Assembly (NCBI GenBank): GCA_031431155.1 | Contig: JANPCW010000204.1 | Span: 2,461-66,460, forward strand | DNA: 64,000 nt | DNA from: Janthinobacterium sp. | Lineage (GTDB): Bacteria; Pseudomonadota; Gammaproteobacteria; Burkholderiales; Burkholderiaceae_D | Direction of reading: 5' to 3' | In this document: piece after piece, positions 2,571 through 32,494 of the stretch | Numbering within the stretch: the stretch's first letter is position 1 | How the letters are laid out: each line of letters opens with the position of its first letter | Program-made: the position numbers and the translations under genes | The notes under the pieces: generated by a model | The model's database searches: none | Told to the model about the DNA's origin: nothing | What the model saw: only the letters and a program-made list of their open reading frames with translations

Positions 2571-2584
2571 GAATTTCAGTGGTT

Positions 2585-4156: not shown

Positions 4157-4182
4157 GGCCCATCGTGCCATCAATGTTTTGC

Positions 4183-4211: not shown

Positions 4212-4218
4212 CGCGCCC

Positions 4219-4694: not shown

Positions 4695-4710
4695 CTACCA
4701 AGGAAATCTC

Positions 4711-6727: not shown

Positions 6728-6729
6728 GC

Positions 6730-7856: not shown

Positions 7857-7877
7857 CCAACCCACCAGGAGCTAGTC

Positions 7878-8753: not shown

Positions 8754-9103
8754 TGGAACGCCGCAGCTTTCTCGCCGGGATGCTCGCCGCATGCGCGGCG
8801 CCGGCCATCGTGCGCTCGGGCATCCTTATGCCCATTAGGCCTGCCGGGATCGACCTGTCGGCGGCGCCAAGCACGGCCGGGGTTTTCCTTGGCCCTGAGT
8901 TCGGGAGCTACGAGGGATTCAGGTTTGTCGAGTCGAAAGAGTTGGCCTGGATAGGTTCCGTCACAAACAACGACAGCGTGAGGATCAATCTATCGAAGGA
9001 GGGCAGCCGGGTGTTCGTCCCAAACAAGAGTGGCATTTTGAGAGTCTTCATGGATGGCTCGGCCACCATCAACGATCAGCAGCTTGGGCAAATGCCATCA
9101 TAG
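8750..9103 (+). CDS. small secreted protein with a twin-arginine (Tat) signal
   Basis: MMERRSFLAGMLAACAAPAIV fits the Tat consensus (S/T)RRxFL followed by a hydrophobic h-region. Confidence 0.55.
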   Translation: MMERRSFLAGMLAACAAPAIVRSGILMPIRPAGIDLSAAPSTAGVFLGPEFGSYEGFRFVESKELAWIGSVTNNDSVRINLSKEGSRVFVPNKSGILRVFMDGSATINDQQLGQMPS

Positions 9104-16632: not shown

Positions 16633-16785
16633 ATGGAACTCCTGGCCCTATTGTGGTTGGCCTGTCTCGTCTGGGTGTTTGCCGCTCCCAGTGAGGGGCA
16701 TCGCCAACAGATGCTTCTGGCGTCTTGGGGGGTGTTGCTAATTCCCGTCATATTCGGTCTGCTCAAGCTGCTTTTCGGTCGGTGA
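16633..16785 (+). CDS. candidate 50-aa two-transmembrane peptide, antisense to the late operon
   Basis: Hand translation gives MELLALLWLACLVWVFAAPSEGHRQQMLLASWGVLLIPVIFGLLKLLFGR. It lies in the 200-bp gap after the giant gene and overlaps that gene's last codons. Only a poorly spaced GAGG precedes the ATG. Confidence 0.3.
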   Translation: MELLALLWLACLVWVFAAPSEGHRQQMLLASWGVLLIPVIFGLLKLLFGR

Positions 16786-19700
16786 CGGACCGCACCGCTT
16801 CATTGAATCGCCGCTGCTTGTTGGCGATCTGCTGCTCGATGAGCTTGACCGATTCCTTGCTGGCGTCCTTTGCCATCAGTTCGCGCTTGCGCTTGCGCAG
16901 TTGGCTCACGTCTCGCTCAACGGCATTGGCCATCATCACCAAGCGCGCTTCTGGGTTCTCTGTAAGGTACTCCGCAGTTGGCTCTCCTGCTTTCCTTCTG
17001 CCCTTCAATTCGGCCTCGTGCTCGTTGATGGCTTTCAGGTTGTTGTAGAAGGCGTTGGATTGGGATGATTGCTGCTCGGCGTCGCCGTAGAACCGACCCA
17101 ACAGAGGCACCTTGTACGTCGGCAAGTCTTCTCCGGTAAACGCGCTGGCAACGGTTTGTTCGGCCTTCATGGCTTCTCGTCCAACTCCGCCAGTCAACTG
17201 CCCGATCAGGTAGTCGATCTGGTCGGGCGTGGGGCTGAACAGGCCGGGCTTGTAGTGCGAGCCGCCGCTGATGTAGTTCAGCGCCTGAGAAACCATCTTG
17301 CTCGCACTGCTGGCCGTGTCCTTGGCCCTGGTGAATCCTGGCGTCGGGTTGAGCTTGTTGAAGTCCTCGCGGGCGATGGGCCTCCCAGTCCAGTCCTTGT
17401 TCTCGGACAAAGCCGCCAGCGGGTCGAGCACAGTCGGCGTGACGGTTTGAATCGACAACCCGGCATTGCCCGTGGGATTGAAGGCGTCGGCCACCATGCT
17501 TACCAGTTGGCCGATTCGCTTCGCCGGATTCCTGAACCCCGACAGGGTGAACTCGGCCGCGATCCGCCCGACCCCTGGAATGACATGCAAACCAAGAGGC
17601 ATCGGGACGGTTAGGTATTCCTTTCCGCCGATGGGCAGGATCAGGTTGCGCTCGCGCACAAAGTCAGGGGGTTCTTCGTCATCGAACCCGGCGGCGGCCA
17701 AGGCCAGGGCTTGCATCACGCCAAGCAAGGCCCCTCCAGCGATGATCTTTTTGCCCGCAGGCCCCTTGAGTGTTTTGGCAAGCCTGGCAGTTCCCTGGAC
17801 TGAGGCGTTGAAGAAGGCGTACAGAGCGCCGGCTTGAAGCCCAATCTCGCCCTTGCGATTGAAGTTCACCGTCAGGTTCTTAGCCATCGAGGCGGCACGC
17901 TGCTTGGTCATGCCCTGCTCTTTGCCGACCTTGTACGCCGCAAGTCTGACCGCGTTTTCCATCGCGGCGTTGTAGTCGCTCAACCAGTCGAACACGGCTC
18001 TGCCAAACCGGATGAACTTGCCCTCGCTGGCCTTTTTGAACTCGCGCTGAATCTCCTCGGCGCGCTCCTGACTGGTGCGAAACAAATCCCGAAATCCAGT
18101 CTGCCCGCCCTCGTTCTGAAATTCCTCCCACTCCTGCGCCCACGCCGAGACTGCTGAATTTCCAGCGCGCACGTCTCGCGCGTCAATGTAGATGCCCCGA
18201 AGCGCCGACAGCGTGTAACTCAACACCGCTGCTTGCTTGCCAGCAATCGGCGTGGTTGTCAGGTTCAACATCGCGCCCTGCAAGTCGCGCACCAGATTGA
18301 CAACGCCAAACACCGGGTTGTACTGGGTATTGATCGAGGCAAAGTACCGCGTCGCCTTGGCCGTTGTCCCAAGCACTTCACCCAACTGCGCGCCGTCCAG
18401 ATTCTTCAAGGTGCGGGCCATTCTCAAGGCCCTCGGGTCGCGCTCGTTGAACTCGACGCCACGCTGAACGATTCGCCCAGTGCCGTCAGGCGCCCTGAAC
18501 ATGATGACGTTTTCTTTTCCTTGGTAGGACATATCGAGCACGTCCACTGGGCTGCCGGTTTCCGTGCTGATGGCCGTCGTCACGCCGGGTTTGGCGATCT
18601 TCCAGAAATCCGAGTTCGGGTTCATCTTTGCAAGACCGTAGAGCGCCATGCCCACGCGGTTCTTTTCTCCGCGCACAACGGCCTTTTCCCGCTGTATGGC
18701 GATGTTGGCTAAGATGTTCACCACAGCCCGCTTGGAGCCCTTTCTTCGGCGCGTCTCAGGCCCGCGAATGGAGAAGCCCTGCCCGATGCCGGGGCCGTTC
18801 TCCATGCTCTCACGATGCAGCGGGACGTAGTGCTGGAATGCTTGCTCCATGCCGGCCACGTCATCCCTTGAAGTCAGGCCATAGTCAACCCAGGTCTGAC
18901 GGGTCTTGGCGGTGATGGCATCCACCCGAACAGCCAACGATTCATAGGCGCGCTTCGTGGCCGGGTCCAGGTTGGACAGGTAGTCAGCAGCCTCCTGCGT
19001 CTCCATGCCGGAGCCGTCGGTCACGGTCGGGTCGCGCGTCTCGATGGCGTCATTGGCTTCCTCGGCGTGCCTTGCATGCAGGTAGGCTTCAAAGTCATCC
19101 ATCTTCACGCCGCGCGTCGTCACATCTTCGATCAGTGGCCGGAGTTCCTTGTCGATGAAATCGTGCGTTCCCTTGGCCGCCCTACCGTAGTAAAGCTCCT
19201 CCTGGAGGTACACATCCAAAGCGTCCGCGATGGCCTGCCCCTGCGCAACAACGGCTTCCAAAACGCGCTTGCCGTCGATCATCTTATCCTGTAGGAAATA
19301 GATGAGGTTGTCCAGCTTGGATGGTTCTGGCGCAACCCAGGTGCCGTTTGCGCCGCCTGTCAGGCCAAGCGGCGTCTGACCGGCGGCCGGGGTGTACTGC
19401 CGATTGGTCTGGCCGGCGATCACGGCGCGGCTGTAGCGCACGCCGCTCCGCGCGTTGTCCACGATCCGCTCAAGTCTGTCCAGGCGCGCGCGCTGCATGT
19501 TTTTGCTGAACAGCGGCAGGCCCCACCGGACGTTCTCGCGCATCTTGTCGGTGATGGTGAAGCCGGGCTGCTGTCCTGGCGGCGCAATCCCGAGACGATC
19601 CCCACGGTCACGCGATTCTTTCAGCGCCACCGCTTTATCTGAATGTCCTGCGCCAGACGCCTGCCCGCTTGCGTCCTCAACATACCAAAGCCCATCAGCG

Positions 19701-22700
19701 TGGCGCTCAACACTGAACTGCATGTCTGTGTCTGCAAACGCAACGTCAGCCACCGCCCCACCCCCCAATTTCGCCAGCAGTTTGTTCACCGCTATCGGCA
19801 CAATCTTGTCGTAGAAGTCGAGCATGCCTTCGCCGCCGACTTTGAGGTCGAGGCCAGAATACTCGCCGCCGCCATCAGCAATGATCCGCGCGGCCAAGTC
19901 CTTACCGACCGTAGCCTCAAGCTCTGACTCTTTTACGTCTGTGTCGATGACGGTATCGCCATCCTTCTCTGCAAGGATGGCGTAACTACCTCCTTGTTTG
20001 CGGGCGACGAGCGTGTCAACCTGATTTATCAAAGCAAACATATCCGCAGCCTGATCGCCCGTGATGAACACCACGCCGTCATGGCCCTCTTGTGCTGCTG
20101 CGACCATGATGCGTTTGAGGGCCAGGGTGAGCCACTTGTCGGTGTGGGTGACGAATGGGGCGGCGGGCGGTCGGCGGGCGGTCTTGTTTCCGGCGTCATG
20201 TTCGCGCCGCTCCTTCTGGAGCCAGTCGCCCCGCAGGGCGGTCAATCGTTGCGCCGCCTGCTCCGGGGTCTGGTTGATGCGATCCGTCAACCGAGTGCGC
20301 TTACCATCTTCAAAGGTGGTCTGGAGCATGTCGTCAGGACCAAGTGGTCGCTCTTTCATGTCGGCGCGCATTTCGTTTCGCCCATCAAGCCACTCTTGCC
20401 CAGCAGCGCCTTCTCGCGCCAGCAGTTCGCGCACCGTTAGATTCTCGGCTGTGATTTTTGGCACCTTGCCGGTGAATGGCGTGGCAAACCCGACGGGCTT
20501 GCCGCCCGAGCCTTTCTTTTTGCTTGCCGCTTGCCAGTCGCTCTGCAACTCGATCACGCGCACATAGCTCTTGCCATCGTCCCCGATCACTACATCGCGG
20601 CGGACATGGGCAAGCACGTTGCGCTCGGCCCAGTGGCCGCCTTTGAATTTGTTTTCTGTCGTCGGCGCCGCCAGCGTCATCAATTCTTCTTTGTATTCGA
20701 TGCCGCCTGGGAGCCGCCATTTGGAAAATTTTGTTCTGTCAGGAACCAGGGTCATTGTTTCAACGGGCCGGCCTTCGGCGTCTGTGCTTGTCGTGCGGTT
20801 TTTTTCTCCGCCCTGCTCCAGCGTCACCACCTTAACCTGTACCCCATTGGCGTCCAGGTACTCGGCCACCTGTTCCTTGGTGATCCGGCCTTCCTGGAGC
20901 CCAAGCCATTCCTCGATGCCGCTCCAGGTCACTTCATCCTGCTTGATCTTTCCCTTGTTGATTAGGCTCTTGATCGCGCCCATCCAGCCCATGGCCGGCA
21001 GAGCTTTGGCTTCCAGGGTTGCAATTTCACGGGACAGGGCAGAGAAGAAGGTTGGGGCGCGCGTGCTGGCGCGCACCCTGCTGCCGCCACCTGGGGCCGC
21101 TGGGCCGCCGCCCTCAACGAACGCCCGAGCCGGGAGCAGGTAGTCGCGGATGATTTCAGCGTCACTCAGGCCCATCGACAGGCCTGGGATGTTCTCGCGC
21201 AGCCACGTCCTGATGGCGGCCACGGCGCGGCGCACCCAGCCCAGCGTGGGTTCGTTCTGCGCCATGTAGGCAAGCAATTCCTCGGCGGCCTCGCGCCGGC
21301 CGTCCAGGGTGTCGTAGTCGATCTTCAGGCGCGCAGCAGCAGCCTTGACCTTGGCCCCGTTCATGGCGATCAGTCCGTCCAGCACCGCATTGAGCCCGGC
21401 GCCGAACACGCCGCGCAGGCCGAAGTGCCCGAGGGTTTCGTGCATCACCACACGGCGCACGGCGCGGGCGTCTGGCAACCTGTCGGCAACCAGATAGACC
21501 GTGCCGTTATCGAACAACCCCTCAACCGACCCGCCCGAGTCAGAGGCCATGGCTCCGCCGCGCAAGTTGGCAGGCAACTCGCTTGCGGTGGAAACCACGA
21601 CGATCTTGGGGCCGTTCTTCCACTTGGACTTGATCTGCGCCGCGACCATGGACGCCATGCCGACGTTGGGCGTGTTGGTCCGGCCTGCCTTGCGACTGGC
21701 TGCTGGCGGGTTGGAGCCGTCGTTCCTGGCCGCCGGGCCGTCGTCCTTCTTGTTCGGGTCTTTCAACTCGACCAGCGGCTTTGTCTCGAAAATGCGATCC
21801 AGCACCTTCCAGCCGTCGGGGCCGACGGGGACGAACAGGCGCTCCGCCCATGCGATGCGCTCCTTGATGACGCCGTATGACACCAGTTCGCGCTGCGACG
21901 CCTCGTAGATCGTCCGGCCATTGCCGCCGATTTCGATGCGCAGTTCGTCCGACACCTTGGCGCGCGCCAGCTTCCAGCCGTTCGCCAGTTCGGCAACTTC
22001 GCCACGGAGAATCCGGCGCATCACTTCGGAAGTCTCGATCTTTGGCGCTGAGATATTCAGGCGCTTCTTGATGTCGTCAACGTCCTTCGGGTGGATGATC
22101 TTGCCCAGCAGGCGTCGTCCGTCCACGGTGTTCGTGCGCGCGACTTGAATGGTGCCGTCCGTTTCCAAGCGGTCCCAGATCGGCAGCATCGCGCCCACGA
22201 TCATGTGCAGCTTCTCGGTGAAAGTCGGCGGACGGGCCTGGGTTTCCTTGTCCCAAAGCGCTTCGGCTTCCTCTGGTGTGGCGGCGCGGTACTTGCCGTT
22301 CTTCACCCAGCGCCCACCGGAGATTTCCTCAAATTCCTCGCGCACTTTGATCGTGGTGCCGCCGGTCCCCAGCATGCGATAACGGTCGCTGATGCTGCCG
22401 TTCTTGTTCGTGATGGTGCCGCTCTTGACCTTGGCCCAGATACGACCGCTCTTGACGTTCACCACCCACTCAATGGGGGCGCCCTGCGTCTTTTCGCTCG
22501 GAAGGCTATAGAACCTATTGGGCTGCGTGACTTCCAACTCGACATAGGTGGTTTCGGCGCCGGTCCTTGGGTCGGTGTGGATTACTTCCTCTTGCGTCAC
22601 CTTGGTTTCGATGGCCTTGATGGTCTGCATCCCGGTGTCGAGTTCTCCACGGGAGCGCGCGACCTCCACCTTTTCCTCGATGCGAGACATGAAAGCGGCG

Positions 22701-25700
22701 AACACCAATTCCTGCATTTCCAAGCCCATCGACAGCAGGCGGTTCAAAAATTGCCGCGTCGGCGGGTACTTGGACTCGGCAATGTTTCCGGTGTTCGGAT
22801 CAACAATGTCTTCCAGGCCCATCTGTTCGAGGAAGTCCACAAACGACACCCCAACCACCTGCCCGCGCTTGATGTCGTCCACCAGTTGGCGGGTGGCCTG
22901 GGTCGCGTACTTGGACTCTAGGTTGTCGGACTCGTTGAACAGGCCGCCGCTGGACGTGTCACGTTGGCCCTTGGTCAAGGCTCCAAGTTGATCCAATCGA
23001 CGCGCGATAGCCGAAAGAAACCGCTTGTGGGCGGGTATGTCGGTTGATGCCAGCTTGTAGTGCGGCTCCGATGCTTGGTTGGTCCGGTGCGACCGGCCCA
23101 TACCCTGGACCGCCTTGTTGGCCCTCCATCCAGGCTGGATCAGGTAGTGCTGGCGCTTGCGCTGGTTTTTCTGCGTGCGGTCGGCGTGGAAGGAGTAGCC
23201 CGTCCCGCCGGCATCGGAGTACACGATGATGCGTTTCTTGTCCGCCATGAAGGCTTCCGCGTCGGCCTTGGCAGCAGAGGCGCCGCGCTGCTCAATCTGA
23301 GCCTTGATGTCGCCGTTCTTGTCTGGCTTGCGCACAACGCGCTGCTTGCGGCCGGTAACTTCGGCCGTGATGTCCGGCCCAAAGTGGTTCAAGATGATTT
23401 CAAGCGGGCCGTCAGGAACACGGATTTCGCGCAAGTCTTTAAGCAACTGCTCGCGCATCTTCACGGCTTCCTTGTTCAGCATCGGCGTGCCATCGGCGTT
23501 CATAACCGGCACGGATATTCTGTTGCCTTCTGGGTCCACGTCATCCTCGTACTGAATGACGGGGAAGGCCTTGGCAACCATTTCCAGCAGTTGATCGCGC
23601 GGCGTCAGGTCCAAGTCCTCCAGGTCGTCAGACTCGTCATCCTCTGCGCGCTTCGCAAGCGCCCGCTCCTGCTGGGCTTCGTTGGTGTTGACCAGTTGCA
23701 GAAGCACCGCGTCGCCTGCTTTCAGGTCTTGCTCGACGGCATCAATGATCGTCGGCATCTGCATGCTGGTGATGATCTGGTTGAAGAACCGTTGCTGGGC
23801 TCCCCAGTAGGCCGACTTCATGTTGGCCTTGGCGCGGTTCGGTTTCTTCTCTCCGTTCGGCCCTGCGGCGTCGGTCGTTGACATAGCCTCGTTCATCCGG
23901 CGAAGCGTGAGTTGCCACGCCTCCGCCAGTTTGTTGTAGATGTCACGCTGGAGAGGGGTCAACTTATGCTCAACCTCGGCGCGCGAGTAGGTCACGCCGT
24001 CGAAGGACAGGCTGCGGGCGATGTATGCGCCCATCTGCTTCATGTCGCGGGCAACAAGCTCCATGGTCGCAAGGCCGCCGGCCACCATCTTCTCGACAAA
24101 GCTATGGACGCTTGGGAACGGCGTGCCCATTCCCCACAACCCAAGGCGGGTCGCAAAGGACAGGTTGGACACTTCCGTCGCGCCGGTCGCAGACACATAG
24201 ACCACGCGGGCCTTGGGCAGTTGCTTTTGAAGCTCCACCACCGCCATAGCCTGGGCGGACGGCTGTGAAGCTCCGCGCTCGCCCTTGATGGCGATGGCGT
24301 TGCCGGCGTTGTGCGCTTCATCGAAGGCGATCACGCCATCGAAGTCTTTGCCGAGCCAATTGACAAGCTGGTCAAGCCTGGATTGTCCTTTGGCGACAAC
24401 GCTCATCCCGTGGATGGCGGCGCCTGTCCTCTGCGATTTAGCCGCGCTGCGCAGCGTCGAATAGGTTGTGAAAATGATGCCGTTTTTCGCGTCGATCTTG
24501 CCTTCGGCGCCGGTCTTGTTCTGATTGAAGATGATCGACTCGTCGCCACCGACTCCTTTGAAGTCGCGCTTTGCGTCGTTCATCAGGCCTTGCTTCTCAG
24601 AAACCCAAACGTGCTTCTTGCGGCCTTGGCGCAGGTTGTCCAGGAGGATGCCGCCGATCATTCTCCCTTTGCCGGTGTTGTGAGTGACGATCAGATCGTC
24701 GGTCAGGTACAGGTGCTGGTCATGCGCAACTGAAATGCACTGGCACTCGCGCTCGCCAATGGGCTCGACCGAGCGAAGGATTCGCTGCGGCGAGTATTTT
24801 TCCCAGGATGCGCGCACTCTGGTCGCCTTGCGCCCAAGCGAGAACGGGTTGACGCCGGACGGAAGTTTCACATAGACAACGTGGCAGTCCCTGTGCGTGG
24901 TTTTCTTAATGGAGCGCGTGGCCACGCCGCCCAGTGATCGGCACAGAAACACCACATCGTCGGCGAGTCGCGCAGAAATGGTGTAGTAAATCGCCGAGCC
25001 GTTGTGTTTGGCGGCATGCCCGTCGGTGTCCATCAGACCGCGCAGGATGGCCAGGCGTGTCTCGACTGAGTTGATCTTGTAGTCGTCGGGGATGAACTTA
25101 TCAGCGGCCCCCGCTCCGGCAAGTCCGAGGTTACGCAGGGCAACCAACAGCGGGTTCGATTGTCGGTCCATACCGGACCACTGGCGCCCGCCGGCTTTAA
25201 CGATGTCGTAGTGGTAATCGCGCGAAACAACCTTGCGAGCCATCAGACCGTGCGGCAGAGCAGCCTCCACCATTTCAACCATCTCTGGCTCGGCGCACAC
25301 CAGTTGCGCAGACGACTGCCGCAGGCATCCATCGCCAAGCAACACCCCCAGCAGCCACGGATTGATGCTCACCGGCTTCTTGGGAAATTGCACCGGAGCC
25401 ACCAAAGGAATGGAATGTAATTTACGAACATCGGTCGCCAGCATGTCGGTGGTCCTCAGCTTCGGAGGCCCGTATGTCACGCCCCTTCCTTGCTTCTGGA
25501 AACTGCGCTCCTGGCGCGTTTGCGTCAGCCACAGGTGCTCGCCGCTGGCCTCCGTGCTGGAGCCATCTGAGAACGTCAGCTTGTAAGTTGAAAGGACGCC
25601 CTGCGGGAATACGCCGGTCACTCGCGTTGGCGTTCCATCGACCGCGATTACCTCGTCGCCTTCGACCAAATCCCCCATGGTGCGCCAACCGGTGGGCGTG

Positions 25701-28700
25701 AGCACCTTGGCGGTCAACGGCTGCGGGCCGGTTCCATCGCCGATGAAGAATCCGCGCCGCGCCTCCACCAAATTGGAATCTCGCGGCAGCAGTTGCTCAT
25801 GGGCCTGCCCGGCATAGACCACGGCCTCAATCTGCGCCAGCGACAGCAGGCCGTCGGTGATGGTCTTTTTCGGCAGGTTCGGCGTGTAGGTTGGGGCCGG
25901 CGGCAGCACCGACGCCATGGCGGCGGATTGCACCAACGCGCCAGGATGCGGCTTGGCCCCTTCGACCTGCAAGCGCTGCGGCGTGTAGCCCTCGAAGATC
26001 GAGTCGGTCAGTTCCCCGGCCTGGGTCGTTTCCGATCCGACATTTACGCCGGTTGCGCCCCCGGCGGTATCAGGTCCACTACCAGCGTCAGGATCGCTCT
26101 GCCCGCCTCCTCCAGGCTTTTCGCTGTCTCGATTTCCGCGCTTTCCAGGTTGCGGTAAACGTCCTCCGGGTCGTCCCCCTCCACCTCCGCCACCGCCGCC
26201 TCCACGGCCTCCGCCCACACCGGGTCGGCCGCCAGGTTCTCCAGCGCCCACTCCAGCAGTTGGACCAGTATCAATCGGCCCGGCTGGACCGTCAGGTGTT
26301 GCTGCGTCATCAGGCGCATCACGTTCTGACTCAGCATCGTCGCGTTCAAGCTGGTCACGGTCGTTGGTTGCGCCTTTTGCATTTGGTCGGTCATTGCGGA
26401 CTCCTTCGAGTAGTGCGATCAGTTCTGTGTAGTCAGAAACTCCGGTTGTGATTGGCTTTGCCCCATCTTTCGGAGGGGCCACTTTGTCAATGACGATCAG
26501 GACGTTGTTGAACGTGGTTCCGTACTTGGCATATCCACTCCCGTCCACCGGGATCACCGCCCGAACGTGGTGCTTGGCGGCGATCCTTGCCCACCATTCA
26601 CGGAAGGCTGGCTTGCCCCACTCCATGCCCTCGCCAGAGATTGCGACAAGGCGCCCTCCATCCACCAGACTGCTGAGCCCTTGCTCAATGTGCTTGGCGC
26701 CGATGGCCGAGTTGTTTTTCAGATTGTTGGCGGCGGCCGAGAACGGTGGGTTCATCACCACCACTGTTGGCTGCGCGCTGTCGGGCAGGAAGTTGCTGAT
26801 GTGCTCGGCGTTTTCGTGATAGACCGTGGCGCCTGGGAACAGGTCTTGCAGCACAGCGGCGCGGCGGCTCGACAGTTCGTTCAAGATCAGCTTGGCGCCA
26901 GCGTTCTTGGCGAACACGGTCAGGCCACCAATGCCGGCCGATGGCTCCAGCATCGTGTCTGCGCTGGTGACGTTGGCGGCCCAGTTGGCGATGAACGCAA
27001 ACGGCGGCACCGTGCTGAACTGCTGGAACTTGTCCATTTCCTCCGTGCGCTTGGTCTGCGTCGGCAGCAGGGCGGTGATCTTCTTGAGCGACTCCACGGC
27101 CAGGATTGCGCTGGCTCGGTCGGTGTTCGGGTTGAACGTGATGCCATTGCGCATCAGGTGCAGGTTGACGCCCGCCTCCATGGCGTCGTAGGCGTCCTTC
27201 GGGGTGTACTTGCCCTCGGCCTGGGTGCCGCCGAAAGCCTCGTCCGCCTCCTCGAACAGCGCCCTCCAGTCGAACGCCAGCCCTTTCTCTAGGATGCCCT
27301 GCACGCGCTTGGCAAGCGTCATCGAGGCGCTTGACTTGGCTCCAAGCTGCGCCGTCAGGCCCTCGTCCTTTGCAAAGCGGATGGCGTATTCCTTGATGCC
27401 ATCACCGAACTGCTCGATCAGGAACTTGAACAACTCCTTGAGAGTCTTCCCGGCATCCTGGAACGCCTTGAGCGCTGCGGAAAAGTGGGGCTTGGCCTCT
27501 TTGTAGGCGTCCTCGTCAAAGCCGCCCGGAAACGAGTTCAACCGCCCCGGCTTGCTGCCGAACAGTTTGGCAAGCCCGGTGAGCGCTTCATTGATGCCGG
27601 TCACGCCAAGCTGCGCCGCCTGACCAATCAGGTTAGCAGCCGTCGGGTTCTCGCGCGCCAGCTTCTCAGGCGTCCACGCTCCCGAGTCGGCTTTGGGTGC
27701 TGGCTCCGGTGGTGCATCCGGGGTTTCCTGCTCCGATTCCGAAAGTTCGGCCGCCGCTTCGTCAAACAGGTTTTCCAGGTCGGTGTCGGTCAGGTCGCCG
27801 GATGGCTCTGCCGGCGCGTCCACTATCGGCGGCGCAAGTTCGGCCTCTTTTTCTTCCGCAAGGCGGTCCAGTTCCTCCTGCTCGGCCCTGGTCTTGGCTT
27901 CGGCTTCTTGGGCGCGTCGCGCAATTTCCTCTTGATAGAAAACTCGCATGTTCTCCGGGTCGGACAGGTCTTTCATGCGACGCTGGCCGTCCTGGATTTC
28001 TTCGGGAAGGTTCTTCTCGAAAGCCTCTCTGCTGACGGTCGGCTTCCCGTCCTTCCATGTGATGGACTTGAACAGAGTGGCGTACAGCTTGTTGAACAGC
28101 GCGCGCTCAGTGCCGGTGGGGTACGGGGTGCCTCGGAAGCCCTTGGCCTTTGTCACGTTGCCTTCGCCCACCCAGGCCGCGTTGACAAGGTAGTCGCTCC
28201 TGAATCCCAGCGTGTCGGCCACCCACGCCTCGCCCGCCCTGGCGAACAACTCCTTGTCGTTGCCCCAGTATTTCTTGCCCAGAATGTCGGCATTTTGTTT
28301 ATAGGCCGTGGATTTGTCGGAGAACCCGCGCGTCATGGCGTAGGTGGCATGATTCACCTTGTCTTTCCTGTCGCCCAGGTGCGTCCAATAGGTTCCACCG
28401 AACAGGAAATCCATGGCGCGCTTTTCTACGGCATCGACCGTGGGCGCCTGTTGTTTCAGGTAGCGCAGGAACATGCCGCGAACGGTGGCCCAGTCGCCCC
28501 CCATCATGTCGTCTATGGCGTGGTGCCACTCATGCGCCAGCGTGCCGTCGCCCTTGGTGTTGGTGACGTTGATGGCCTTCACCGGGCCGTTGGGGCTTGG
28601 GTGGGCTGGGTGGAATGTCGCCGCAAACTTGCCGCGCCCCAGGGCGCCAATAAGGAAGTGCATCTTCCCGCCAAAGCCAATCCCACTCAACGATGCTCCG

Positions 28701-31700
28701 ACGTGGCTCGCCAGATCGACAAAAGCGTCGTGCGAATAGTTCAGGTGGTCCTGGTCCTCTTTGGCCTTGACATAGGTGCCGAAGCCGATGTCGGCAAACG
28801 AGAAGCGTGTTTTTACACCCTCCGGGGTAACGTCTTTGCCTTCTCGAAGTTCTGGTCCATCGCGCACAACGATGTCCAAGCGCGGCGGGATCATCTGCGC
28901 GTTGCGCGTCGGCAGGGCGATGGTTTTCTCGTTCTCGATCAGGTGTTTTGTCCACTCTGATTTGGAGCGAAGCTGCTGGAAGTCTCTGTCCACTGGCCGC
29001 CAGATTTTGCTGTTGACAACCGCCAAGCCCTTGTCGTTCAACAAGCTGCTGTAGAAGCGTTGTTCGGCGTCGTGCTCTTTTTCTTTTGCCGCATCGACGT
29101 AGCGTTCATCGAATTGCTCGGCGGCCTCTTTCACGGATGACTTGCCTTGCGCAAACTCGATCAGCGCACGAACCTTGCCGACGTACTCGGCGGCCACGTC
29201 CTGGAGCCACTTGATGCGATAGGCGGAGTCAGATTGGAACTTGTCGCGGTCCTCTGATGTCAGGTTGCCTGGATACCTGTCGCCCTCAAGCATGTAGTCG
29301 GTGTTGCTCTTGTCGCTATTCCTCCACGCGGAATTTCCCAGCCAAAAATACGACTTGTCCAGCCATTCCTTGAAGGTTTCGGTGTTGCCGCGAATGTGCT
29401 CAATGTAGAGCCGGAAGCCTGGGCTCACGCCATCCGGGAGCAATGGCTCGAACAGGCTGGCCCGCGCAGTGGCGCGCTCGATCTGCGCCCATGCTGTGGT
29501 CGCGTCGCTCTCGTCGGCTTTCATCTGGTCGCGCAACTGCTCGTACCAGCGGCGAAGATCGACCCCGGTGTTCTCCAGCTTGTTGACTGGCACCCCTTCG
29601 TACCACGCATTGCCTTCGGTGGTTTTCATCCAGCGGCGGCCGGCTTTGTACCCAAGCATGCGCGATGGCATTTCGCCGCCGTGCATCGTGCTCTTGGTCT
29701 TGCCTCTGAGCGCGTGGTCCCACCCAGACGTGAATGCCACTTGCTGCTCGGGCGTCAGCACCGGGTCGATGCCCTTCATGGCGTCGTCGATGGCGCCCTG
29801 GCGGACTTCGGGCTTGCGGTGTTTCTGTTTTTCCAATTCGGCCTGCTTCACCTTGATCTTCTGTTCTGCGACTTTGACGAGGCGCTGAATCTGGAACGGC
29901 GCCAGCTTCGTGTCGCCAAGCAACTCCGTGACGCGGGCGATCAGTTCCTCGCGCGACTTTCCAACCATGTCTGGGTCGTTCGCCAGCGCGTTGAAAACTT
30001 CCGACTGCTTGATGCGCTTGGCCTTGGGCGTGTTGTCCTCTGCGGCCGGTGGCTTGGGTGTCGGCGGCGCTGGCTGGGTCTTGCTTGGCTCTGCCTTTTT
30101 CGGCGACCGCACCTTTCCTTGGATCACTGGGTCAAGCTCGTCCCATGGCGTGTTTGAGAACTGGCGGATTTGGTCGCCATCAACATAACCGGCATCGCGC
30201 AGCATCTTGGCTCGCACTGGCACTGCGGCTGCATCCCATCCGTCTTTGGTGGCGTCTTTCCCGGCAGGCTCCTTGGGCGGCTTTTGCGGCTCCGCTATCG
30301 TTCCTCCGCCACCAGTTCCGGTTGGTGGCGGCGGAGTCCCCGGCTTTGTCCATGGCATCATTCCGGCCCCTGGCGGATCGTCCTCGGTCCCCGGCTCGGT
30401 TTTGTCTTTGGGTGGCATGGCGGCCCCGCCGGCCGACGTAGATTCGCCGCCAATGGTTCCGCCGCCTTGTGCAGGTGGTGCTACCGGGCCGCTGCCTGAG
30501 ACACCAGTTCCACCCGCCGTTCCTGCGCCTGGCGTTTGCGGTCCCGCGCCAGGAGCATTGCCGCCACCTGGATTTCCAAGTCCTCCGGTGGGGGTGGGTG
30601 CTTGTCCGGGTGGCTGTTGCGCTTGGCCTTGCTGGGCTTCTGTTTTTTTACCATGTGCATCGCCCTTCGTTGTCGGAATGATGTTTTTTGCGACCGATGA
30701 CGGGCCTACAATAGGCGTCGCGGGTGGCGTTGATGCGTCACCCGCGACTGGCACATCATTACTGGTTGGAGTAACAGCATGCTTACTGTCAAGTGTAGTT
30801 GGTGCGGCGCCGCCGTCACTAGGCACCCGTCCCTCATTCTGAGGGCGCCCAACGTCTTCTGCTGTCGTCGATGTTCTGGACTGCACAGGGCTTCTGCCAC
30901 GCCCATCGTCAACAAAACCAGCGGCGCCTTTTATCCCTGCGTTCGTTGTGGCAAGGCCGTCTATAGGCAAGTCTGCCGAATGAAGACCCTCAAGGAGGGC
31001 AGGGTGTTTTGCGGCCACGCTTGCTACCAAGCGCATGATCGAGGAGGAGGCATCAACTCCGATGGTTACCGCGTTATCACCGTCGCCCCGTACACCACCA
31101 AAATCGAGCATCGATGGATCATGGAACAGCATCTCGGGCGTGAGCTTTTGGCGACTGAGCACGTTCACCACATCAACAGGGATAAGCTTGATAACCGCCT
31201 TGAGAACCTCGTCGTTCTTTCCGATAGCGAGCATATGTCGCTTCACAGAAGACACCGCCTCACTATCGATGACATCAAACCCTTTGTTTCCTGTGGTCGT
31301 ACTTCCACCGAAATCGCTGTTGCCTTCGGGGTTGACCGATCCACCGTCACTCGCTTGCTTCACTCCAATGGACTGATTGCCAGTCGAATCAGTCGGCAAT
31401 AAAGCGGTCGGCAGCAGTCCTGCTGCGATCTTGGAAATCGGGCCGACAACGGGGATGCCATTCCCAACGGGCGGCATCGGGCCAAGCTGCGGCCCATTGT
31501 TGTATCCCATCGCGCCAGCCGAAAGCGGCGGGGCGGGCGGCGGGATGACGGTGTTGGTCGCTGCCGTGATGGGGCCTGAGGGCGGCGGGATGGCGGCGAA
31601 GCCACCACCGAGAACGGCCCCAGCCAGAGCGCCCTCGGTCACGGCGCGAGCCATGCCCTCGGTGATTGGTTTGCCTTCGGCCCAGTTCTTCGCCGCCGAT

Positions 31701-32494
31701 TCGATGGCAGATTGCGGGCCTTCCTCGAACAAAGCCTCGCTCACCATGCCGCTTGGCACCCGCTTGTAAATCGGCGGGGCAACGGCGCCTGCTGTACGCG
31801 CACCACCGGCAATCGCCACGTCTGGGTCCAGGAATCCGAAGCGTTGCGCGATGCGGCCGCCGCCATAGCCAACGACGCCGCCAAGCGCTCCGGCGCCAAG
31901 CGATGCGAGGGCGGCCCTTTGCGGGTCCACGGCCGGGTCGATTTCCTTCATGGACCCGCCGGCAATGATGGAGCCTTCGCCAATCGCCGCGCGGGCTGGG
32001 CCTGATGCTATTCCGCCAATGACCCCCAGGGCACGGCCAGCCAACCCACCCGCAAACATTGGCGCGATTGAGCGCGCCACGGTCATGGCGGTGGCGCGTG
32101 GATTGTCGATGTATGCACGCGCCACGTCCCAGGCTGTAGTGTTTGGGTCTTTCCAGGCTGTATCAACGGCTCCTTGCTGGGCCTGCGTCTCGGTAGAAAG
32201 TTGCGCGTTTGTTTCGTCTTCCCACTTGCCGGGCTGAAACCCGGTGGCCGTGCCAACCCGGTCGGCCAAGCGGCTGATTGGACGGTCGAACCCAGCAAGA
32301 CCAAGCGGTATGTCCGCCACGCCCGTCAGTAGTCCGGGGATGCTTTGCACACCCTGCTTGAGCCCAGCCCCCAGGTCTTGCGTCAGTGTGCGTCGCGGCG
32401 CAAGTGTTGCCGTATCTGAATCGACGGCGACGCCGCCAAATTCATCGGTCCCGCCATCTACAAGTTCACCGCCAAATTGGTCTTTTGCCATCAT
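16763..32494 (-). CDS. giant polyvalent virion/ejection protein (5,243 aa): N6-adenine DNA methyltransferase, Sbno/SNF2-type helicase, two HExxH metallopeptidase-like modules and a C-terminal membrane-associated module
   Basis: The ORF is uninterrupted and its ATG overlaps the upstream stop (ATGA at 32491-32494). Motifs are located in the sub-features below. The hydrophobic segment IIAGGALLGVMQALALAAAGF lies near 17690-17760. The gene sits where podoviruses encode internal or ejection proteins. Confidence 0.85.
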   Translation of the reverse strand: MMAKDQFGGELVDGGTDEFGGVAVDSDTATLAPRRTLTQDLGAGLKQGVQSIPGLLTGVADIPLGLAGFDRPISRLADRVGTATGFQPGKWEDETNAQLSTETQAQQGAVDTAWKDPNTTAWDVARAYIDNPRATAMTVARSIAPMFAGGLAGRALGVIGGIASGPARAAIGEGSIIAGGSMKEIDPAVDPQRAALASLGAGALGGVVGYGGGRIAQRFGFLDPDVAIAGGARTAGAVAPPIYKRVPSGMVSEALFEEGPQSAIESAAKNWAEGKPITEGMARAVTEGALAGAVLGGGFAAIPPPSGPITAATNTVIPPPAPPLSAGAMGYNNGPQLGPMPPVGNGIPVVGPISKIAAGLLPTALLPTDSTGNQSIGVKQASDGGSVNPEGNSDFGGSTTTGNKGFDVIDSEAVSSVKRHMLAIGKNDEVLKAVIKLIPVDVVNVLSRQKLTPEMLFHDPSMLDFGGVRGDGDNAVTIGVDASSSIMRLVASVAAKHPALLEGLHSADLPIDGLATTNAGIKGAAGFVDDGRGRSPVQSRTSTTAEDVGRPQNEGRVPSDGGAAPTTLDSKHAVTPTSNDVPVAGDASTPPATPIVGPSSVAKNIIPTTKGDAHGKKTEAQQGQAQQPPGQAPTPTGGLGNPGGGNAPGAGPQTPGAGTAGGTGVSGSGPVAPPAQGGGTIGGESTSAGGAAMPPKDKTEPGTEDDPPGAGMMPWTKPGTPPPPTGTGGGGTIAEPQKPPKEPAGKDATKDGWDAAAVPVRAKMLRDAGYVDGDQIRQFSNTPWDELDPVIQGKVRSPKKAEPSKTQPAPPTPKPPAAEDNTPKAKRIKQSEVFNALANDPDMVGKSREELIARVTELLGDTKLAPFQIQRLVKVAEQKIKVKQAELEKQKHRKPEVRQGAIDDAMKGIDPVLTPEQQVAFTSGWDHALRGKTKSTMHGGEMPSRMLGYKAGRRWMKTTEGNAWYEGVPVNKLENTGVDLRRWYEQLRDQMKADESDATTAWAQIERATARASLFEPLLPDGVSPGFRLYIEHIRGNTETFKEWLDKSYFWLGNSAWRNSDKSNTDYMLEGDRYPGNLTSEDRDKFQSDSAYRIKWLQDVAAEYVGKVRALIEFAQGKSSVKEAAEQFDERYVDAAKEKEHDAEQRFYSSLLNDKGLAVVNSKIWRPVDRDFQQLRSKSEWTKHLIENEKTIALPTRNAQMIPPRLDIVVRDGPELREGKDVTPEGVKTRFSFADIGFGTYVKAKEDQDHLNYSHDAFVDLASHVGASLSGIGFGGKMHFLIGALGRGKFAATFHPAHPSPNGPVKAINVTNTKGDGTLAHEWHHAIDDMMGGDWATVRGMFLRYLKQQAPTVDAVEKRAMDFLFGGTYWTHLGDRKDKVNHATYAMTRGFSDKSTAYKQNADILGKKYWGNDKELFARAGEAWVADTLGFRSDYLVNAAWVGEGNVTKAKGFRGTPYPTGTERALFNKLYATLFKSITWKDGKPTVSREAFEKNLPEEIQDGQRRMKDLSDPENMRVFYQEEIARRAQEAEAKTRAEQEELDRLAEEKEAELAPPIVDAPAEPSGDLTDTDLENLFDEAAAELSESEQETPDAPPEPAPKADSGAWTPEKLARENPTAANLIGQAAQLGVTGINEALTGLAKLFGSKPGRLNSFPGGFDEDAYKEAKPHFSAALKAFQDAGKTLKELFKFLIEQFGDGIKEYAIRFAKDEGLTAQLGAKSSASMTLAKRVQGILEKGLAFDWRALFEEADEAFGGTQAEGKYTPKDAYDAMEAGVNLHLMRNGITFNPNTDRASAILAVESLKKITALLPTQTKRTEEMDKFQQFSTVPPFAFIANWAANVTSADTMLEPSAGIGGLTVFAKNAGAKLILNELSSRRAAVLQDLFPGATVYHENAEHISNFLPDSAQPTVVVMNPPFSAAANNLKNNSAIGAKHIEQGLSSLVDGGRLVAISGEGMEWGKPAFREWWARIAAKHHVRAVIPVDGSGYAKYGTTFNNVLIVIDKVAPPKDGAKPITTGVSDYTELIALLEGVRNDRPNAKGATNDRDQLERDDAESERDAPDDAATPDGPAGPIDTGPTAGVGAGEPGGRPGVGGGRGGGGGGGGGGRPGGRLPQPGKRGNRDSEKPGGGGQSDPDAGSGPDTAGGATGVNVGSETTQAGELTDSIFEGYTPQRLQVEGAKPHPGALVQSAAMASVLPPAPTYTPNLPKKTITDGLLSLAQIEAVVYAGQAHEQLLPRDSNLVEARRGFFIGDGTGPQPLTAKVLTPTGWRTMGDLVEGDEVIAVDGTPTRVTGVFPQGVLSTYKLTFSDGSSTEASGEHLWLTQTRQERSFQKQGRGVTYGPPKLRTTDMLATDVRKLHSIPLVAPVQFPKKPVSINPWLLGVLLGDGCLRQSSAQLVCAEPEMVEMVEAALPHGLMARKVVSRDYHYDIVKAGGRQWSGMDRQSNPLLVALRNLGLAGAGAADKFIPDDYKINSVETRLAILRGLMDTDGHAAKHNGSAIYYTISARLADDVVFLCRSLGGVATRSIKKTTHRDCHVVYVKLPSGVNPFSLGRKATRVRASWEKYSPQRILRSVEPIGERECQCISVAHDQHLYLTDDLIVTHNTGKGRMIGGILLDNLRQGRKKHVWVSEKQGLMNDAKRDFKGVGGDESIIFNQNKTGAEGKIDAKNGIIFTTYSTLRSAAKSQRTGAAIHGMSVVAKGQSRLDQLVNWLGKDFDGVIAFDEAHNAGNAIAIKGERGASQPSAQAMAVVELQKQLPKARVVYVSATGATEVSNLSFATRLGLWGMGTPFPSVHSFVEKMVAGGLATMELVARDMKQMGAYIARSLSFDGVTYSRAEVEHKLTPLQRDIYNKLAEAWQLTLRRMNEAMSTTDAAGPNGEKKPNRAKANMKSAYWGAQQRFFNQIITSMQMPTIIDAVEQDLKAGDAVLLQLVNTNEAQQERALAKRAEDDESDDLEDLDLTPRDQLLEMVAKAFPVIQYEDDVDPEGNRISVPVMNADGTPMLNKEAVKMREQLLKDLREIRVPDGPLEIILNHFGPDITAEVTGRKQRVVRKPDKNGDIKAQIEQRGASAAKADAEAFMADKKRIIVYSDAGGTGYSFHADRTQKNQRKRQHYLIQPGWRANKAVQGMGRSHRTNQASEPHYKLASTDIPAHKRFLSAIARRLDQLGALTKGQRDTSSGGLFNESDNLESKYATQATRQLVDDIKRGQVVGVSFVDFLEQMGLEDIVDPNTGNIAESKYPPTRQFLNRLLSMGLEMQELVFAAFMSRIEEKVEVARSRGELDTGMQTIKAIETKVTQEEVIHTDPRTGAETTYVELEVTQPNRFYSLPSEKTQGAPIEWVVNVKSGRIWAKVKSGTITNKNGSISDRYRMLGTGGTTIKVREEFEEISGGRWVKNGKYRAATPEEAEALWDKETQARPPTFTEKLHMIVGAMLPIWDRLETDGTIQVARTNTVDGRRLLGKIIHPKDVDDIKKRLNISAPKIETSEVMRRILRGEVAELANGWKLARAKVSDELRIEIGGNGRTIYEASQRELVSYGVIKERIAWAERLFVPVGPDGWKVLDRIFETKPLVELKDPNKKDDGPAARNDGSNPPAASRKAGRTNTPNVGMASMVAAQIKSKWKNGPKIVVVSTASELPANLRGGAMASDSGGSVEGLFDNGTVYLVADRLPDARAVRRVVMHETLGHFGLRGVFGAGLNAVLDGLIAMNGAKVKAAAARLKIDYDTLDGRREAAEELLAYMAQNEPTLGWVRRAVAAIRTWLRENIPGLSMGLSDAEIIRDYLLPARAFVEGGGPAAPGGGSRVRASTRAPTFFSALSREIATLEAKALPAMGWMGAIKSLINKGKIKQDEVTWSGIEEWLGLQEGRITKEQVAEYLDANGVQVKVVTLEQGGEKNRTTSTDAEGRPVETMTLVPDRTKFSKWRLPGGIEYKEELMTLAAPTTENKFKGGHWAERNVLAHVRRDVVIGDDGKSYVRVIELQSDWQAASKKKGSGGKPVGFATPFTGKVPKITAENLTVRELLAREGAAGQEWLDGRNEMRADMKERPLGPDDMLQTTFEDGKRTRLTDRINQTPEQAAQRLTALRGDWLQKERREHDAGNKTARRPPAAPFVTHTDKWLTLALKRIMVAAAQEGHDGVVFITGDQAADMFALINQVDTLVARKQGGSYAILAEKDGDTVIDTDVKESELEATVGKDLAARIIADGGGEYSGLDLKVGGEGMLDFYDKIVPIAVNKLLAKLGGGAVADVAFADTDMQFSVERHADGLWYVEDASGQASGAGHSDKAVALKESRDRGDRLGIAPPGQQPGFTITDKMRENVRWGLPLFSKNMQRARLDRLERIVDNARSGVRYSRAVIAGQTNRQYTPAAGQTPLGLTGGANGTWVAPEPSKLDNLIYFLQDKMIDGKRVLEAVVAQGQAIADALDVYLQEELYYGRAAKGTHDFIDKELRPLIEDVTTRGVKMDDFEAYLHARHAEEANDAIETRDPTVTDGSGMETQEAADYLSNLDPATKRAYESLAVRVDAITAKTRQTWVDYGLTSRDDVAGMEQAFQHYVPLHRESMENGPGIGQGFSIRGPETRRRKGSKRAVVNILANIAIQREKAVVRGEKNRVGMALYGLAKMNPNSDFWKIAKPGVTTAISTETGSPVDVLDMSYQGKENVIMFRAPDGTGRIVQRGVEFNERDPRALRMARTLKNLDGAQLGEVLGTTAKATRYFASINTQYNPVFGVVNLVRDLQGAMLNLTTTPIAGKQAAVLSYTLSALRGIYIDARDVRAGNSAVSAWAQEWEEFQNEGGQTGFRDLFRTSQERAEEIQREFKKASEGKFIRFGRAVFDWLSDYNAAMENAVRLAAYKVGKEQGMTKQRAASMAKNLTVNFNRKGEIGLQAGALYAFFNASVQGTARLAKTLKGPAGKKIIAGGALLGVMQALALAAAGFDDEEPPDFVRERNLILPIGGKEYLTVPMPLGLHVIPGVGRIAAEFTLSGFRNPAKRIGQLVSMVADAFNPTGNAGLSIQTVTPTVLDPLAALSENKDWTGRPIAREDFNKLNPTPGFTRAKDTASSASKMVSQALNYISGGSHYKPGLFSPTPDQIDYLIGQLTGGVGREAMKAEQTVASAFTGEDLPTYKVPLLGRFYGDAEQQSSQSNAFYNNLKAINEHEAELKGRRKAGEPTAEYLTENPEARLVMMANAVERDVSQLRKRKRELMAKDASKESVKLIEQQIANKQRRFNEAVRSVTDRKAA
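21425..21442 (-). other. HExxH motif 2 (HETLGH, aa 3685-3690) of the giant protein
   Basis: The context VRRVVMHETLGHFGLRGVFG resembles a SprT/ArdC-type metallopeptidase. Confidence 0.55.
23050..25860 (-). other. Strawberry-notch/SNF2-like superfamily-2 helicase domain of the giant protein (interrupted by an intein)
   Basis: The P-loop GFFIGDGTG|TGKGR is split at 24677-25726. DEAH lies at 24311-24322. C-terminal helicase motifs are YSDAGGTGYSFHAD and QGMGRSHRTNQ (about 23080-23250). Confidence 0.75.
24677..25726 (-). mobile_element. intein (350 aa) with a LAGLIDADG homing endonuclease, inserted in the helicase P-loop
   Basis: It spans P2257 to N2606. It ends in VTHN followed by a +1 Thr. LAGLIDADG motifs are LLGVLLGDGCL and LRGLMDTDGH. 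Block B is GEHLW and block F is ECQCISV. Removing it restores GDGTGTGKGR. Confidence 0.8.
26480..27040 (-). other. N6-adenine DNA methyltransferase domain of the giant protein
   Basis: Motif I is LEPSAGIGGL (about 26924-26947). Motif IV is NPPF (26741-26752, aa 1915-1918). Confidence 0.75.
28520..28534 (-). other. HExxH motif 1 (HEWHH, aa 1321-1325) of the giant protein
   Basis: The context GDGTLAHEWHHAIDDMMGG resembles the zincin-like modules of large polyvalent proteins. Confidence 0.5.
30779..31402 (+). CDS. HNH homing endonuclease (207 aa) encoded antisense within the giant ORF
   Basis: A GGAG at 30768-30771 lies 7 nt before the ATG. The N-terminus has two Cys4-type zinc-finger pairs. 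The HNH_3 core is GYRVITV...EHRWIMEQHLGRELLATEHVHHINRDKLDNRLENLVVLSDSEHMSLH. The C-terminal HTH is TSTEIAVAFGVDRSTVTRLL. Confidence 0.85.
   Translation: MLTVKCSWCGAAVTRHPSLILRAPNVFCCRRCSGLHRASATPIVNKTSGAFYPCVRCGKAVYRQVCRMKTLKEGRVFCGHACYQAHDRGGGINSDGYRVITVAPYTTKIEHRWIMEQHLGRELLATEHVHHINRDKLDNRLENLVVLSDSEHMSLHRRHRLTIDDIKPFVSCGRTSTEIAVAFGVDRSTVTRLLHSNGLIASRISRQ

Follow-up and report, generated by a model that had tools for sequence, protein, structure and literature searches.

An HNH endonuclease gene lineage that probably resides as an in-frame antisense insert in giant polyvalent-protein genes of phages

Introduction

Homing endonuclease genes have been described in three residences: within introns, within inteins, and as free-standing genes in intergenic positions. 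Free-standing examples in phages reportedly include the seg and mob genes of T4, and mobE is said to split nrdA in Aeromonas phage Aeh1; an intron-borne example is I-HmuI, from the SPO1 DNA polymerase intron. Homing endonuclease genes in antisense orientation have been described only within spliced group I introns of nuclear rDNA (PMC9548176), and long antisense overlapping genes, in pairs of 957 nucleotides (nt) and 1,536 nt, have been reported in Pseudomonas aeruginosa (PMC8850804; reviewed in PMC7457138). Large polyvalent proteins of phages and conjugative elements were described by Iyer et al. 2017 (PMC5512222). Here, we analyze a 64,000-nt stretch of DNA from Janthinobacterium sp. (contig JANPCW010000204.1, positions 2,461-66,460, forward strand; hereafter, the window), in which a complete HNH_3 endonuclease gene lies on the plus strand inside the continuous minus-strand open reading frame (ORF) of a giant polyvalent protein.

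We describe this arrangement and show that it recurs, that two other classes of insertion site are polymorphic for the insert, and that both reading frames are under selection. Judged from sequence evolution, it is probable that homing-type HNH genes of one lineage persist as antisense inserts in frame with their hosts, the reverse strand of which is translated within the giant protein.

Results

An HNH_3 gene in antisense register within a giant polyvalent-protein gene

The HNH_3 gene occupies positions 30779..31402 (+), extending from ATG to TAA over 207 codons, and encodes two N-terminal Cys4 zinc-ribbon motifs, an HNH core, and a probable C-terminal helix-turn-helix (HTH). A first-pass annotation of the window had credited the gene with its own Shine-Dalgarno (SD) sequence, and this is indeed present, GGAG at 30768..30771 (+), seven bases upstream, within a conserved ACT(A/G)GxxGGAGTAAC box whose minus-strand reading is the conserved peptide VTPTS. 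Loci L002, L004, and L005 keep the box in the form ACTAGxxGGAGTAAC, and L011 has a less similar version. Farther upstream, alignment of the loci points to a putative -10 box for the HNH transcript, TACAAT at 30707..30712 (+), with the same letters in L002, TATAAT in L005, and AGTAAT in L004.

The core matches Pfam HNH_3 (PF13392) over residues 111-153 with E=1.1e-12 and 47.8 bits, against a gathering cut-off of 24.8 bits, and the two Cys4 fingers anticipated at first pass correspond to two CxxC...CxxC motifs, of which C54, C57, C78, and C82 are invariant among homologs. Residue conservation was judged in a five-sequence alignment, in which H111, H128/130/131, N133, N139, N143, and H152 are invariant, and then across 39 sequences, in which H131 and N143 are invariant and H111, H130, N133, N139, and H152 nearly so. 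The closest homologs, P0001 and P0002, share 57-62% identity with the window's protein, and in them, as in the many more distant ones, the Cys residues of the zinc ribbons and the catalytic His/Asn residues are retained. An AlphaFold2 (AF2) model built on the 39-sequence alignment has a predicted local distance difference test score (pLDDT) of 89.5; its top Foldseek match in the PDB is I-HmuI (1u3e), with a probability of 0.97 but an E value of 0.048 and a template-modeling (TM) score of 0.29-0.34, and the next fold matches are HTH DNA-binding domains. A PDB sequence search with the protein returned zero matches. The Pfam matches of the C-terminal HTH proposed earlier are weak and below the cut-off. 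The layout, with zinc ribbons followed by an HNH core and then an HTH, resembles that of I-HmuI, and we conclude that 30779-31402 is a real HNH_3 gene; the enzyme, which is itself an ordinary member of the family, is predicted from sequence evolution to be an active endonuclease.

On the minus strand, the same bases (30779..31402 (-), the reverse complement of the HNH gene) are read as codons 365-572 of an ORF of 5,243 amino acids (aa) that runs in one continuous frame over 16763..32494 (-). The codons of the two genes are in exact antiparallel register, such that 30779-30781 is one codon on each strand, and the HNH gene contains no TTA, CTA, or TCA codon, so that the giant frame stays stop-free through the insert, as noted at first pass. 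The antisense segment holds no stops, no Cys, and no Trp. It had also looked AT-rich by eye, and its GC content is indeed 0.50-0.60, compared with 0.66-0.71 in the immediate flanks. The Pro/Gly linker downstream of the insert, 30155-30778 (-), has a host-frame GC content at third codon positions (GC3) of 0.52, versus 0.75-0.78 elsewhere in the giant ORF, and the portion at ~30700-30778 is the conserved HNH leader.

From its N terminus, the giant protein comprises a Gly/Ala-rich module, the antisense segment, the Pro/Gly linker, LPD1, an intein-split Sbno-like helicase (AAA_34 and Helicase_C_4), and LPD38. Given LPD1, AAA_34 with Helicase_C_4, and LPD38 in a 5,243-aa phage ORF, the host protein is an ordinary large polyvalent protein, and the unusual part is its association with the HNH gene. 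The window is a tailed-phage structural region in which the terminase, portal, head-closure, and virion proteins are all encoded on the minus strand, and the giant ORF lies at the end of this structural operon, adjoined by the portal, terminase, and head-closure genes; the label of an essential virion gene, given to it at first pass, is replaced here by that of a polyvalent-protein gene. Its ATG and the stop codon of the gene before it overlap (ATGA), suggesting translational coupling to that upstream gene.

A Pfam search with minus-frame codons 365-572 found no family. The segment is probably hydrophilic, Cys-free, and mostly flexible, as modeled by AF2 from the single sequence (pLDDT 41, with a central stretch predicted helical at pLDDT ~70), which is weak evidence, low confidence being expected without an alignment. 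Predicted tryptic peptides within aa 365-572 include HMLAIGK, LIPVDVVNVLSR, and LTPEMLFHDPSMLDFGGVR.

Recurrence of the arrangement across loci and proteins

The two closest HNH homologs occur in the same antisense context, within open in-register frames that extend over at least 2,306 (L001) and at least 415 (L002) codons. When IMG/VR was scanned with the HNH alignment, without use of context information, 80 loci were returned, and 16 loci from IMG/VR and ENA that were fetched by HNH homology alone carry the HNH gene antisense and in register within frames of ~415 to >4,000 codons. Altogether, the arrangement recurs at ~20 independent loci, found via HNH homology or antisense-peptide homology, and the stop-free frames span about 400 to 5,262 codons. 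Among the closest loci of the IMG/VR scan, the stop-free stretch around the antisense HNH gene extends for 4,241 codons in L005, 4,072 in L006, 2,046 in L008, 2,299 in L009, 1,045 in L010, 3,299 in L019, 1,683 in L020, 2,641 in L029, and 647 in L030/L031, and for at least 667 in L003, 1,459 in L004, 3,503 in L011, and 2,998 in L021. The distant HNH_3 genes from the IMG/VR scan have many antisense stops, and a scan of a genome collection yielded a single embedded case, L088, whose frame spans 3,671 codons, the other hits being mostly distant HNH genes that are free-standing.

The arrangement was also retrieved from the other strand. An exhaustive HMMER search with the antisense peptide against 1.84 billion cluster representatives matched internal stretches of 149 protein clusters, 18 of them at E<=1e-10. 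These proteins are large (at least 1,000 aa in 121 clusters, at least 2,000 in 84, and at least 4,000 in 15), and the match positions within them, all internal, vary widely. Inspection of the DNA behind P0102 (5,005 aa; Eco57I-like, WH_1, and helicase) and P0047 (2,972 aa; GGDEF and ART-PolyVal) revealed an intact opposite-strand HNH gene where predicted in each case.

Blastn of 29500-32800 against the phage GenBank collection gave no match; tblastn of giant aa 1-1600 against phage GenBank matched only the LPD region, in Stx phages, and is uninformative on the insert; and the HNH search of the phage collection found no embedded case. A homolog search with giant aa 1-364 produced 8,000 word candidates, none of them significant, probably owing to low complexity, and no relatives of the LPD1 region (aa 1100-1600) were found in viral contigs. 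A distinct arrangement was seen in L086 (Mycobacterium phage Mantra gene 64) and L087 (Cylindrospermopsis phage Cr-LKS3 g59), in which HNH_3-like sequence lies on the sense strand of genes annotated as methyltransferase/DNA methylase and may represent either a sense fusion in frame or an insert of the intein type. Existing gene calls differ in how they handle the two partners: in L001 and L002, the HNH gene is called and the giant is truncated or uncalled around it, and in L083 and L084, the giant is called and the HNH gene omitted.

Selection on both reading frames

Within the HNH ORF, the window and L002 mismatch at 0.46, 0.22, and 0.31 of HNH codon positions 3, 2, and 1, respectively, and in the flanks of the alignment, the mismatch maximum shifts to host position 3 (0.75). 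The 75 bases before the HNH ATG (30716-30790 region) are conserved at all three codon positions. The shift of the maximum implies that the selected frame switches at ~31400 and at ~30715-30790; by this codon-position comparison, the HNH frame is under purifying selection.

The same comparison bears on the possibility that the HNH reading is a shadow, with the minus-strand segment a conserved polyvalent domain and the plus-strand ORF nonfunctional. The minus-frame peptide does recur in the 149 protein clusters, and its central stretch is the part predicted to be helical. The substitution maximum at plus position 3 nevertheless refutes this account; moreover, the plus frame belongs to the curated HNH_3 family, which includes free-standing genes, its identity to homologs is 57-62% compared with 37-46% for the minus frame, and the segment lacks both a Pfam family and a model approaching that of the HNH protein. 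We regard such a shadow as barely credible.

To assess the host frame, synonymous resampling was used, whereby each HNH codon was redrawn among its synonyms according to the codon usage of the flanking giant ORF. For the window, this predicts 2.3 stops, 3.3 Cys, and 1.6 Trp in the antisense segment, and the absence of all three has P ~7e-4 (Poisson estimate). For the 16 intact embedded HNH loci, a set chosen for openness, the resampling predicts 64.8 antisense stops and none was observed (z -8.8). Cys was observed 4 times versus 73.6 expected (z -9.5), Trp 2 versus 19.2 (z -5.1), Phe 75 versus 128 (z -6.8), and His 48 versus 99 (z -8.1), whereas Ser (316 versus 171, z +13.2) and Lys (146 versus 78, z +9.6) are in excess; the antisense peptide is also poor in Tyr and rich in Gly. 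At the level of codons, the A-ending members of four-fold families that would yield antisense TGN make up 1-3% of their families (CCA 2/76, ACA 2/163, and GCA 2/209), compared with 24% for the internal control, GGA and CGA, which yield antisense Ser. Taken together, (A/C/G)CA codons number 6/448 (1.3%) in embedded genes and 72/346 (21%) in GC-matched free-standing relatives (Fisher p=1.6e-21), whereas GGA and CGA usage is alike in the two sets.

The depletion matches the composition of the host proteins. Insert-bearing giants (P0044-P0192) are almost Cys-free, with 0.027% Cys over 316,738 residues and no Cys at all in 76 of 121. All six Cys of the window's giant ORF fall in aa 2390-2586, inside a probable LAGLIDADG intein (aa 2257-2606; 24677..25726 (-)) that splits the helicase P-loop as GDGTG / ... 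VTHN / TGKGR. The composition of the antisense segment thus matches the near absence of Cys from the mature protein, unlike that of the intein, which would be spliced out. The other structural proteins of the window contain 0-2.4% Cys, and the Cys scarcity of the giants may be linked to protein packaging and delivery.

A segment that is removed would have no reason to avoid Cys, Trp, or stops, which leads us to read the segment as a translated part of the giant. Removal before maturation could take the form of a spliced intron carrying an antisense endonuclease gene, an alternative raised at first pass, or of an intein-like or protease-excised peptide. In favor of removal are the antisense endonuclease genes known from nuclear rDNA group I introns, the two probable inteins that the genome already carries, and the insertion of a sister lineage between ART-PolyVal catalytic motifs, a typical intron or intein site (see below). 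Nevertheless, an Rfam cmscan of 29500-32800 on both strands at E<=1 gave no match and no group I or group II intron signature, and Pfam detected no Hint or intein domain on either strand. A spliced segment need not keep the frame or avoid stops, Cys, and Trp, yet each embedded copy does; the segment has no Cys, whereas the true intein in the same protein (ending ..THN/T) freely holds six; and no conserved nucleophile or border residues were seen across loci. We consider removal, including the intron alternative, improbable.

Two natural controls separate the frames. L012 carries a free-standing sister of the HNH gene of L010, and most of the ART domain of its host has been lost. In the in-register antisense frame of this sister there are 3 stops, 3 Cys, 2 Trp, and 7 NCA codons, whereas that of L010 has none of these. 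In L009, a second HNH copy (11336-11749) has two plus-strand stops, marking it as a pseudogene, and the 2,299-codon host frame remains open through it. This second copy resembles a decaying insert kept as host protein sequence. Together, the two loci imply that decay of the HNH gene spares the host ORF and that, once the host ORF is gone, the antisense bias disappears too. On this comparative evidence, the host (minus) frame is under selection as well and would therefore be translated.

Insertion sites and insertion polymorphism

The giants of L005 and L021 match that of the window in three regions, namely, over the N-terminal module, around LPD1, and over the last 900 residues (48% identity in L005), and in both, the N-terminal module and the downstream modules form a single ORF. 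In L005, the HNH insert is positioned elsewhere in the giant than in the window. Comparison of the loci revealed at least three classes of insertion site, two of which have insert-free alleles.

Site class A is the Pro/Ala/Gly-rich linker after the N-terminal module. The window, L002, and L021 carry the insert there, and the linker of L005 is simply Pro-rich and free of an insert at this position. Site class B lies between the motifs 'DLKVGGEGM..FYD.IV..VL.KLG' and 'QPGFDITP..R..A..GLPLFS' and carries an insert in L005 and P0047. The window's own giant provides an insert-free allele of site B at aa 4233-4330 (19505..19798 (-)), between the DLKVGGEGM..KLGGG and QPGFTITP..GLPLFS motifs, and the site is also empty in L019. 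Site class C falls inside the ART-PolyVal domain, between motifs 2 and 3, as a precise insertion of ~170 residues flanked by '..YR..LS' and 'G.LY.VE'. The insert-free P0056 reads '..GLYFASRREVAEYYRDSLS-DGKE-GHLYKVEIPEDD..' there, with four residues at the insertion point, and the distance from the first to the third ART motif is 50 residues in P0056 compared with 210-224 in L008, L010, L020, L029, and several cluster representatives. A different ART-PolyVal insertion of ~50 residues, predicted to be coiled-coil-like (RRAELQQQIDSLLAKESRARGE...), occupies the same loop in L006/P0054 (aa ~2882-2990) and may be a remnant or else an expansion of the loop that is unrelated.

Presence/absence polymorphism at precise sites, as expected of homing genes, was therefore found at site B and in ART-PolyVal. 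The comparison with insert-free relatives proposed at first pass defined insertion borders at sites B and C, and at the window's own site it has only the divergent L005 to draw on. Likewise, the initial picture of a tolerant linker holds for the window, L002, and L021, whereas sister lineages insert precisely inside the conserved ART-PolyVal catalytic domain. In a rough neighbor-joining tree, the embedded HNH genes fall into four or more groups that track site class, the pattern to be expected if they are site-specific homing lineages.

These data also speak to domestication, in which an antisense RNA would control expression of the giant, or the nuclease would attack competing phages or host DNA, and the element would be kept by phage-level selection. 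The arrangement is old enough for intact HNH copies to share only 33-62% identity, the leader is conserved at all codon positions, convergent transcription must couple both genes, and polyvalent proteins are conflict proteins (PMC5512222). By contrast, presence/absence at several unrelated sites and site-specific sublineages fit a selfish cycle of invasion and decay, as do the decayed copy L009b and the L012 copy, which outlived deletion of its host domain; the GC3 of the HNH gene is, in addition, lower than that of the host gene. On balance, we find domestication unlikely.

Inteins of the window

The apparent first residue of the LAGLIDADG intein in the giant ORF is Pro, which is noncanonical and makes its N-terminal border or splicing competence uncertain. 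The terminase large subunit (903 aa; 52703-55414 (-)) contains a LAGLIDADG_3/Hom_end domain at aa 326-383 (~54266-54439) between its ATPase and nuclease parts, probably a second intein, with which the window would contain three homing-type elements.

Discussion

The first-pass proposal of a free-standing HNH gene inserted antisense and in frame, adding about 200 antisense-derived residues to its host protein, is supported and generalized by the recurrence, polymorphism, and codon statistics reported here. With HNH codons complementary to host codons, a host stop is possible only from an HNH TTA, CTA, or TCA codon, the HNH stop codon is itself read as Leu or Ser on the host strand, and host-frame stops can be avoided by synonymous choice at HNH Leu and Ser codons alone. 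Ribosomes on the giant mRNA would then pass through the insert, adding ~170-210 reverse-complement residues, and the plus frame would keep a working endonuclease with synonymous sites tuned so that the minus-strand peptide is without stops, Cys, and Trp. The HNH gene is probably expressed from its own leader, given the conserved SD and the -10-like box, and it retains its own start and stop independently of the host protein. It would probably spread by cleaving or nicking insert-free alleles in co-infection, followed by recombinational repair, with different HNH sublineages targeting different conserved sites of polyvalent-protein genes.

Several points weigh against this interpretation. For the window's own site, no closely related allele without the insert was found, the insert-free L005 being divergent there, and an ART-PolyVal domain with ~170 extra residues may no longer work. 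A sigma-70 consensus scan detected no full promoter for the HNH gene and weak terminator-like sites only, and both the translation of codons 365-572 and the endonuclease activity are argued from sequence evolution. The stop statistic is partly circular, the set being defined by openness, although the Cys/NCA depletion, the long flanks, and the unbiased retrieval are independent of it. In the window's real genes, 23% of 207-codon windows lack in-register antisense stops, and given the HNH residues and host codon usage, P(open) is 0.09-0.15, making openness only mildly improbable in the window alone. Finally, the N-terminal module of L001 is in another frame than the HNH-containing ORF. The module ORF (9790..6524) and the HNH-bearing ORF (6920..3) overlap there by ~400 nt (6524-6920). 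The frame change may reflect an indel in a low-coverage assembly, a gene that is truly split, or programmed frameshifting; unless the assembly has an indel, continuity is not universal. L002, a contig of 4x coverage, has no N-terminal module upstream.

The figures on openness and the overlap of frames near the HNH gene of L001 are also what would be expected of a chance shadow frame, in which the 5,243-codon ORF is an accidental fusion and the HNH gene sits between two separate minus-strand genes. Long plus-strand shadow ORFs elsewhere in the giant gene, and the position of the HNH gene just past the end of a large minus-strand ORF in L012 and L007, point in the same direction. What decides the matter is the comparison across loci: at ~20 of them, independently, the frame is stop-free and in register, with hundreds to thousands of in-frame codons on each side; the summed log10 P(open) over the 16 embedded loci is -31.5; and the depletion of antisense Cys/Trp codons does not depend on openness. 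The window, besides, holds no stop that would end an upstream gene, and the N-terminal module belongs to the same ORF in L005 and L021. We therefore hold a chance shadow to be highly improbable, and the comparative sequence data rule out chance.

If the HNH gene does live as a translated antisense insert, a mobile endonuclease gene can invade coding DNA without splicing machinery, by virtue of a property of the genetic code, namely, that synonymous Leu/Ser changes can keep a codon-aligned antisense frame open. The dual coding of long antisense overlaps is disputed, and the present system offers many replicated test cases in which one strand encodes a known enzyme and the other bears a clear compositional signal; among natural collections of long antiparallel dual-coding regions in which selection can be seen on each strand, it would be the largest. 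After decay, copies may become a source of new linker or protein sequence for the giants, and ~200 residues derived from the reverse complement of a nuclease gene would reside in proteins that are probably delivered into host cells. For annotation, the consequence is that gene callers drop the HNH gene or truncate the giant. For protein engineering, including polyvalent-protein delivery, leads are the absence of Cys and the apparent tolerance of inserts of ~170-200 residues, even inside the ART domain.

Relative to described homing genes, the locus combines features that have been separate. As with intein- and intron-borne homing genes, of which the probable LAGLIDADG inteins of the window are examples, a selfish endonuclease gene would lie inside host coding sequence, often at catalytic sites, with the host protein preserved and with alleles with and without the insert coexisting; the intron-borne I-HmuI in particular shares the HNH and HTH layout and is the best structural match of the window's enzyme. 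Those elements differ in being self-splicing, with the insert removed, whereas the HNH gene of the window is on the opposite strand and its reverse complement would be translated. Free-standing homing genes of the T4 type are likewise stand-alone ORFs of the HNH family that invade phage genes or intergenic regions, and they bear a promoter, which is putative in the gene of the window; the HNH clade of the window includes free-standing sisters (L007 and L012). Classical free-standing genes sit between genes or split a gene, whereas the host ORF of the window continues through the HNH gene. The antisense homing genes of nuclear rDNA share the orientation opposite to the host gene, and they differ in that their intron is spliced out of a non-coding rRNA, without dual coding or an in-frame constraint.

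Among antisense overlaps, the P. aeruginosa pairs resemble the present case in that both strands are apparently coding over several hundred nt in a codon-aligned antisense frame. They are thought to have arisen de novo by overprinting, with one partner an orphan, whereas the overlap described here involves an embedded partner from a widespread, old enzyme family with free-standing relatives and arose by insertion; the 'new' sequence, unlike in the P. aeruginosa pairs, is the host-strand peptide, and it is replicated in >100 protein clusters. The host giants share LPD1, LPD38, and the Sbno-like helicase with the large polyvalent proteins of Iyer et al. (PMC5512222), and relatives add ART-PolyVal, GGDEF, and Eco57I-like modules joined by linkers; a term search of that paper found no mention of antisense, homing, or intein elements in polyvalent genes. 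In the full-text literature searched, which did not cover most subscription journals, we found no description of an antisense in-frame endonuclease gene within a translated ORF, in line with the first-pass impression, and the arrangement is thus apparently undescribed and a new lifestyle of homing endonuclease genes.

The HNH gene of the window fits none of the three described residences, lying within a continuous host ORF, on the opposite strand, with no intron or intein, and not between genes. We think it likely that 'read-through' antisense insertion, in which the gene is purged of the three codons read as host stops, represents a fourth homing endonuclease lifestyle, beside the intron-borne, intein-borne, and free-standing ones, and that this lineage has colonized, with the ART-PolyVal catalytic core among its targets, well over 100 families of giant, Cys-free polyvalent proteins.

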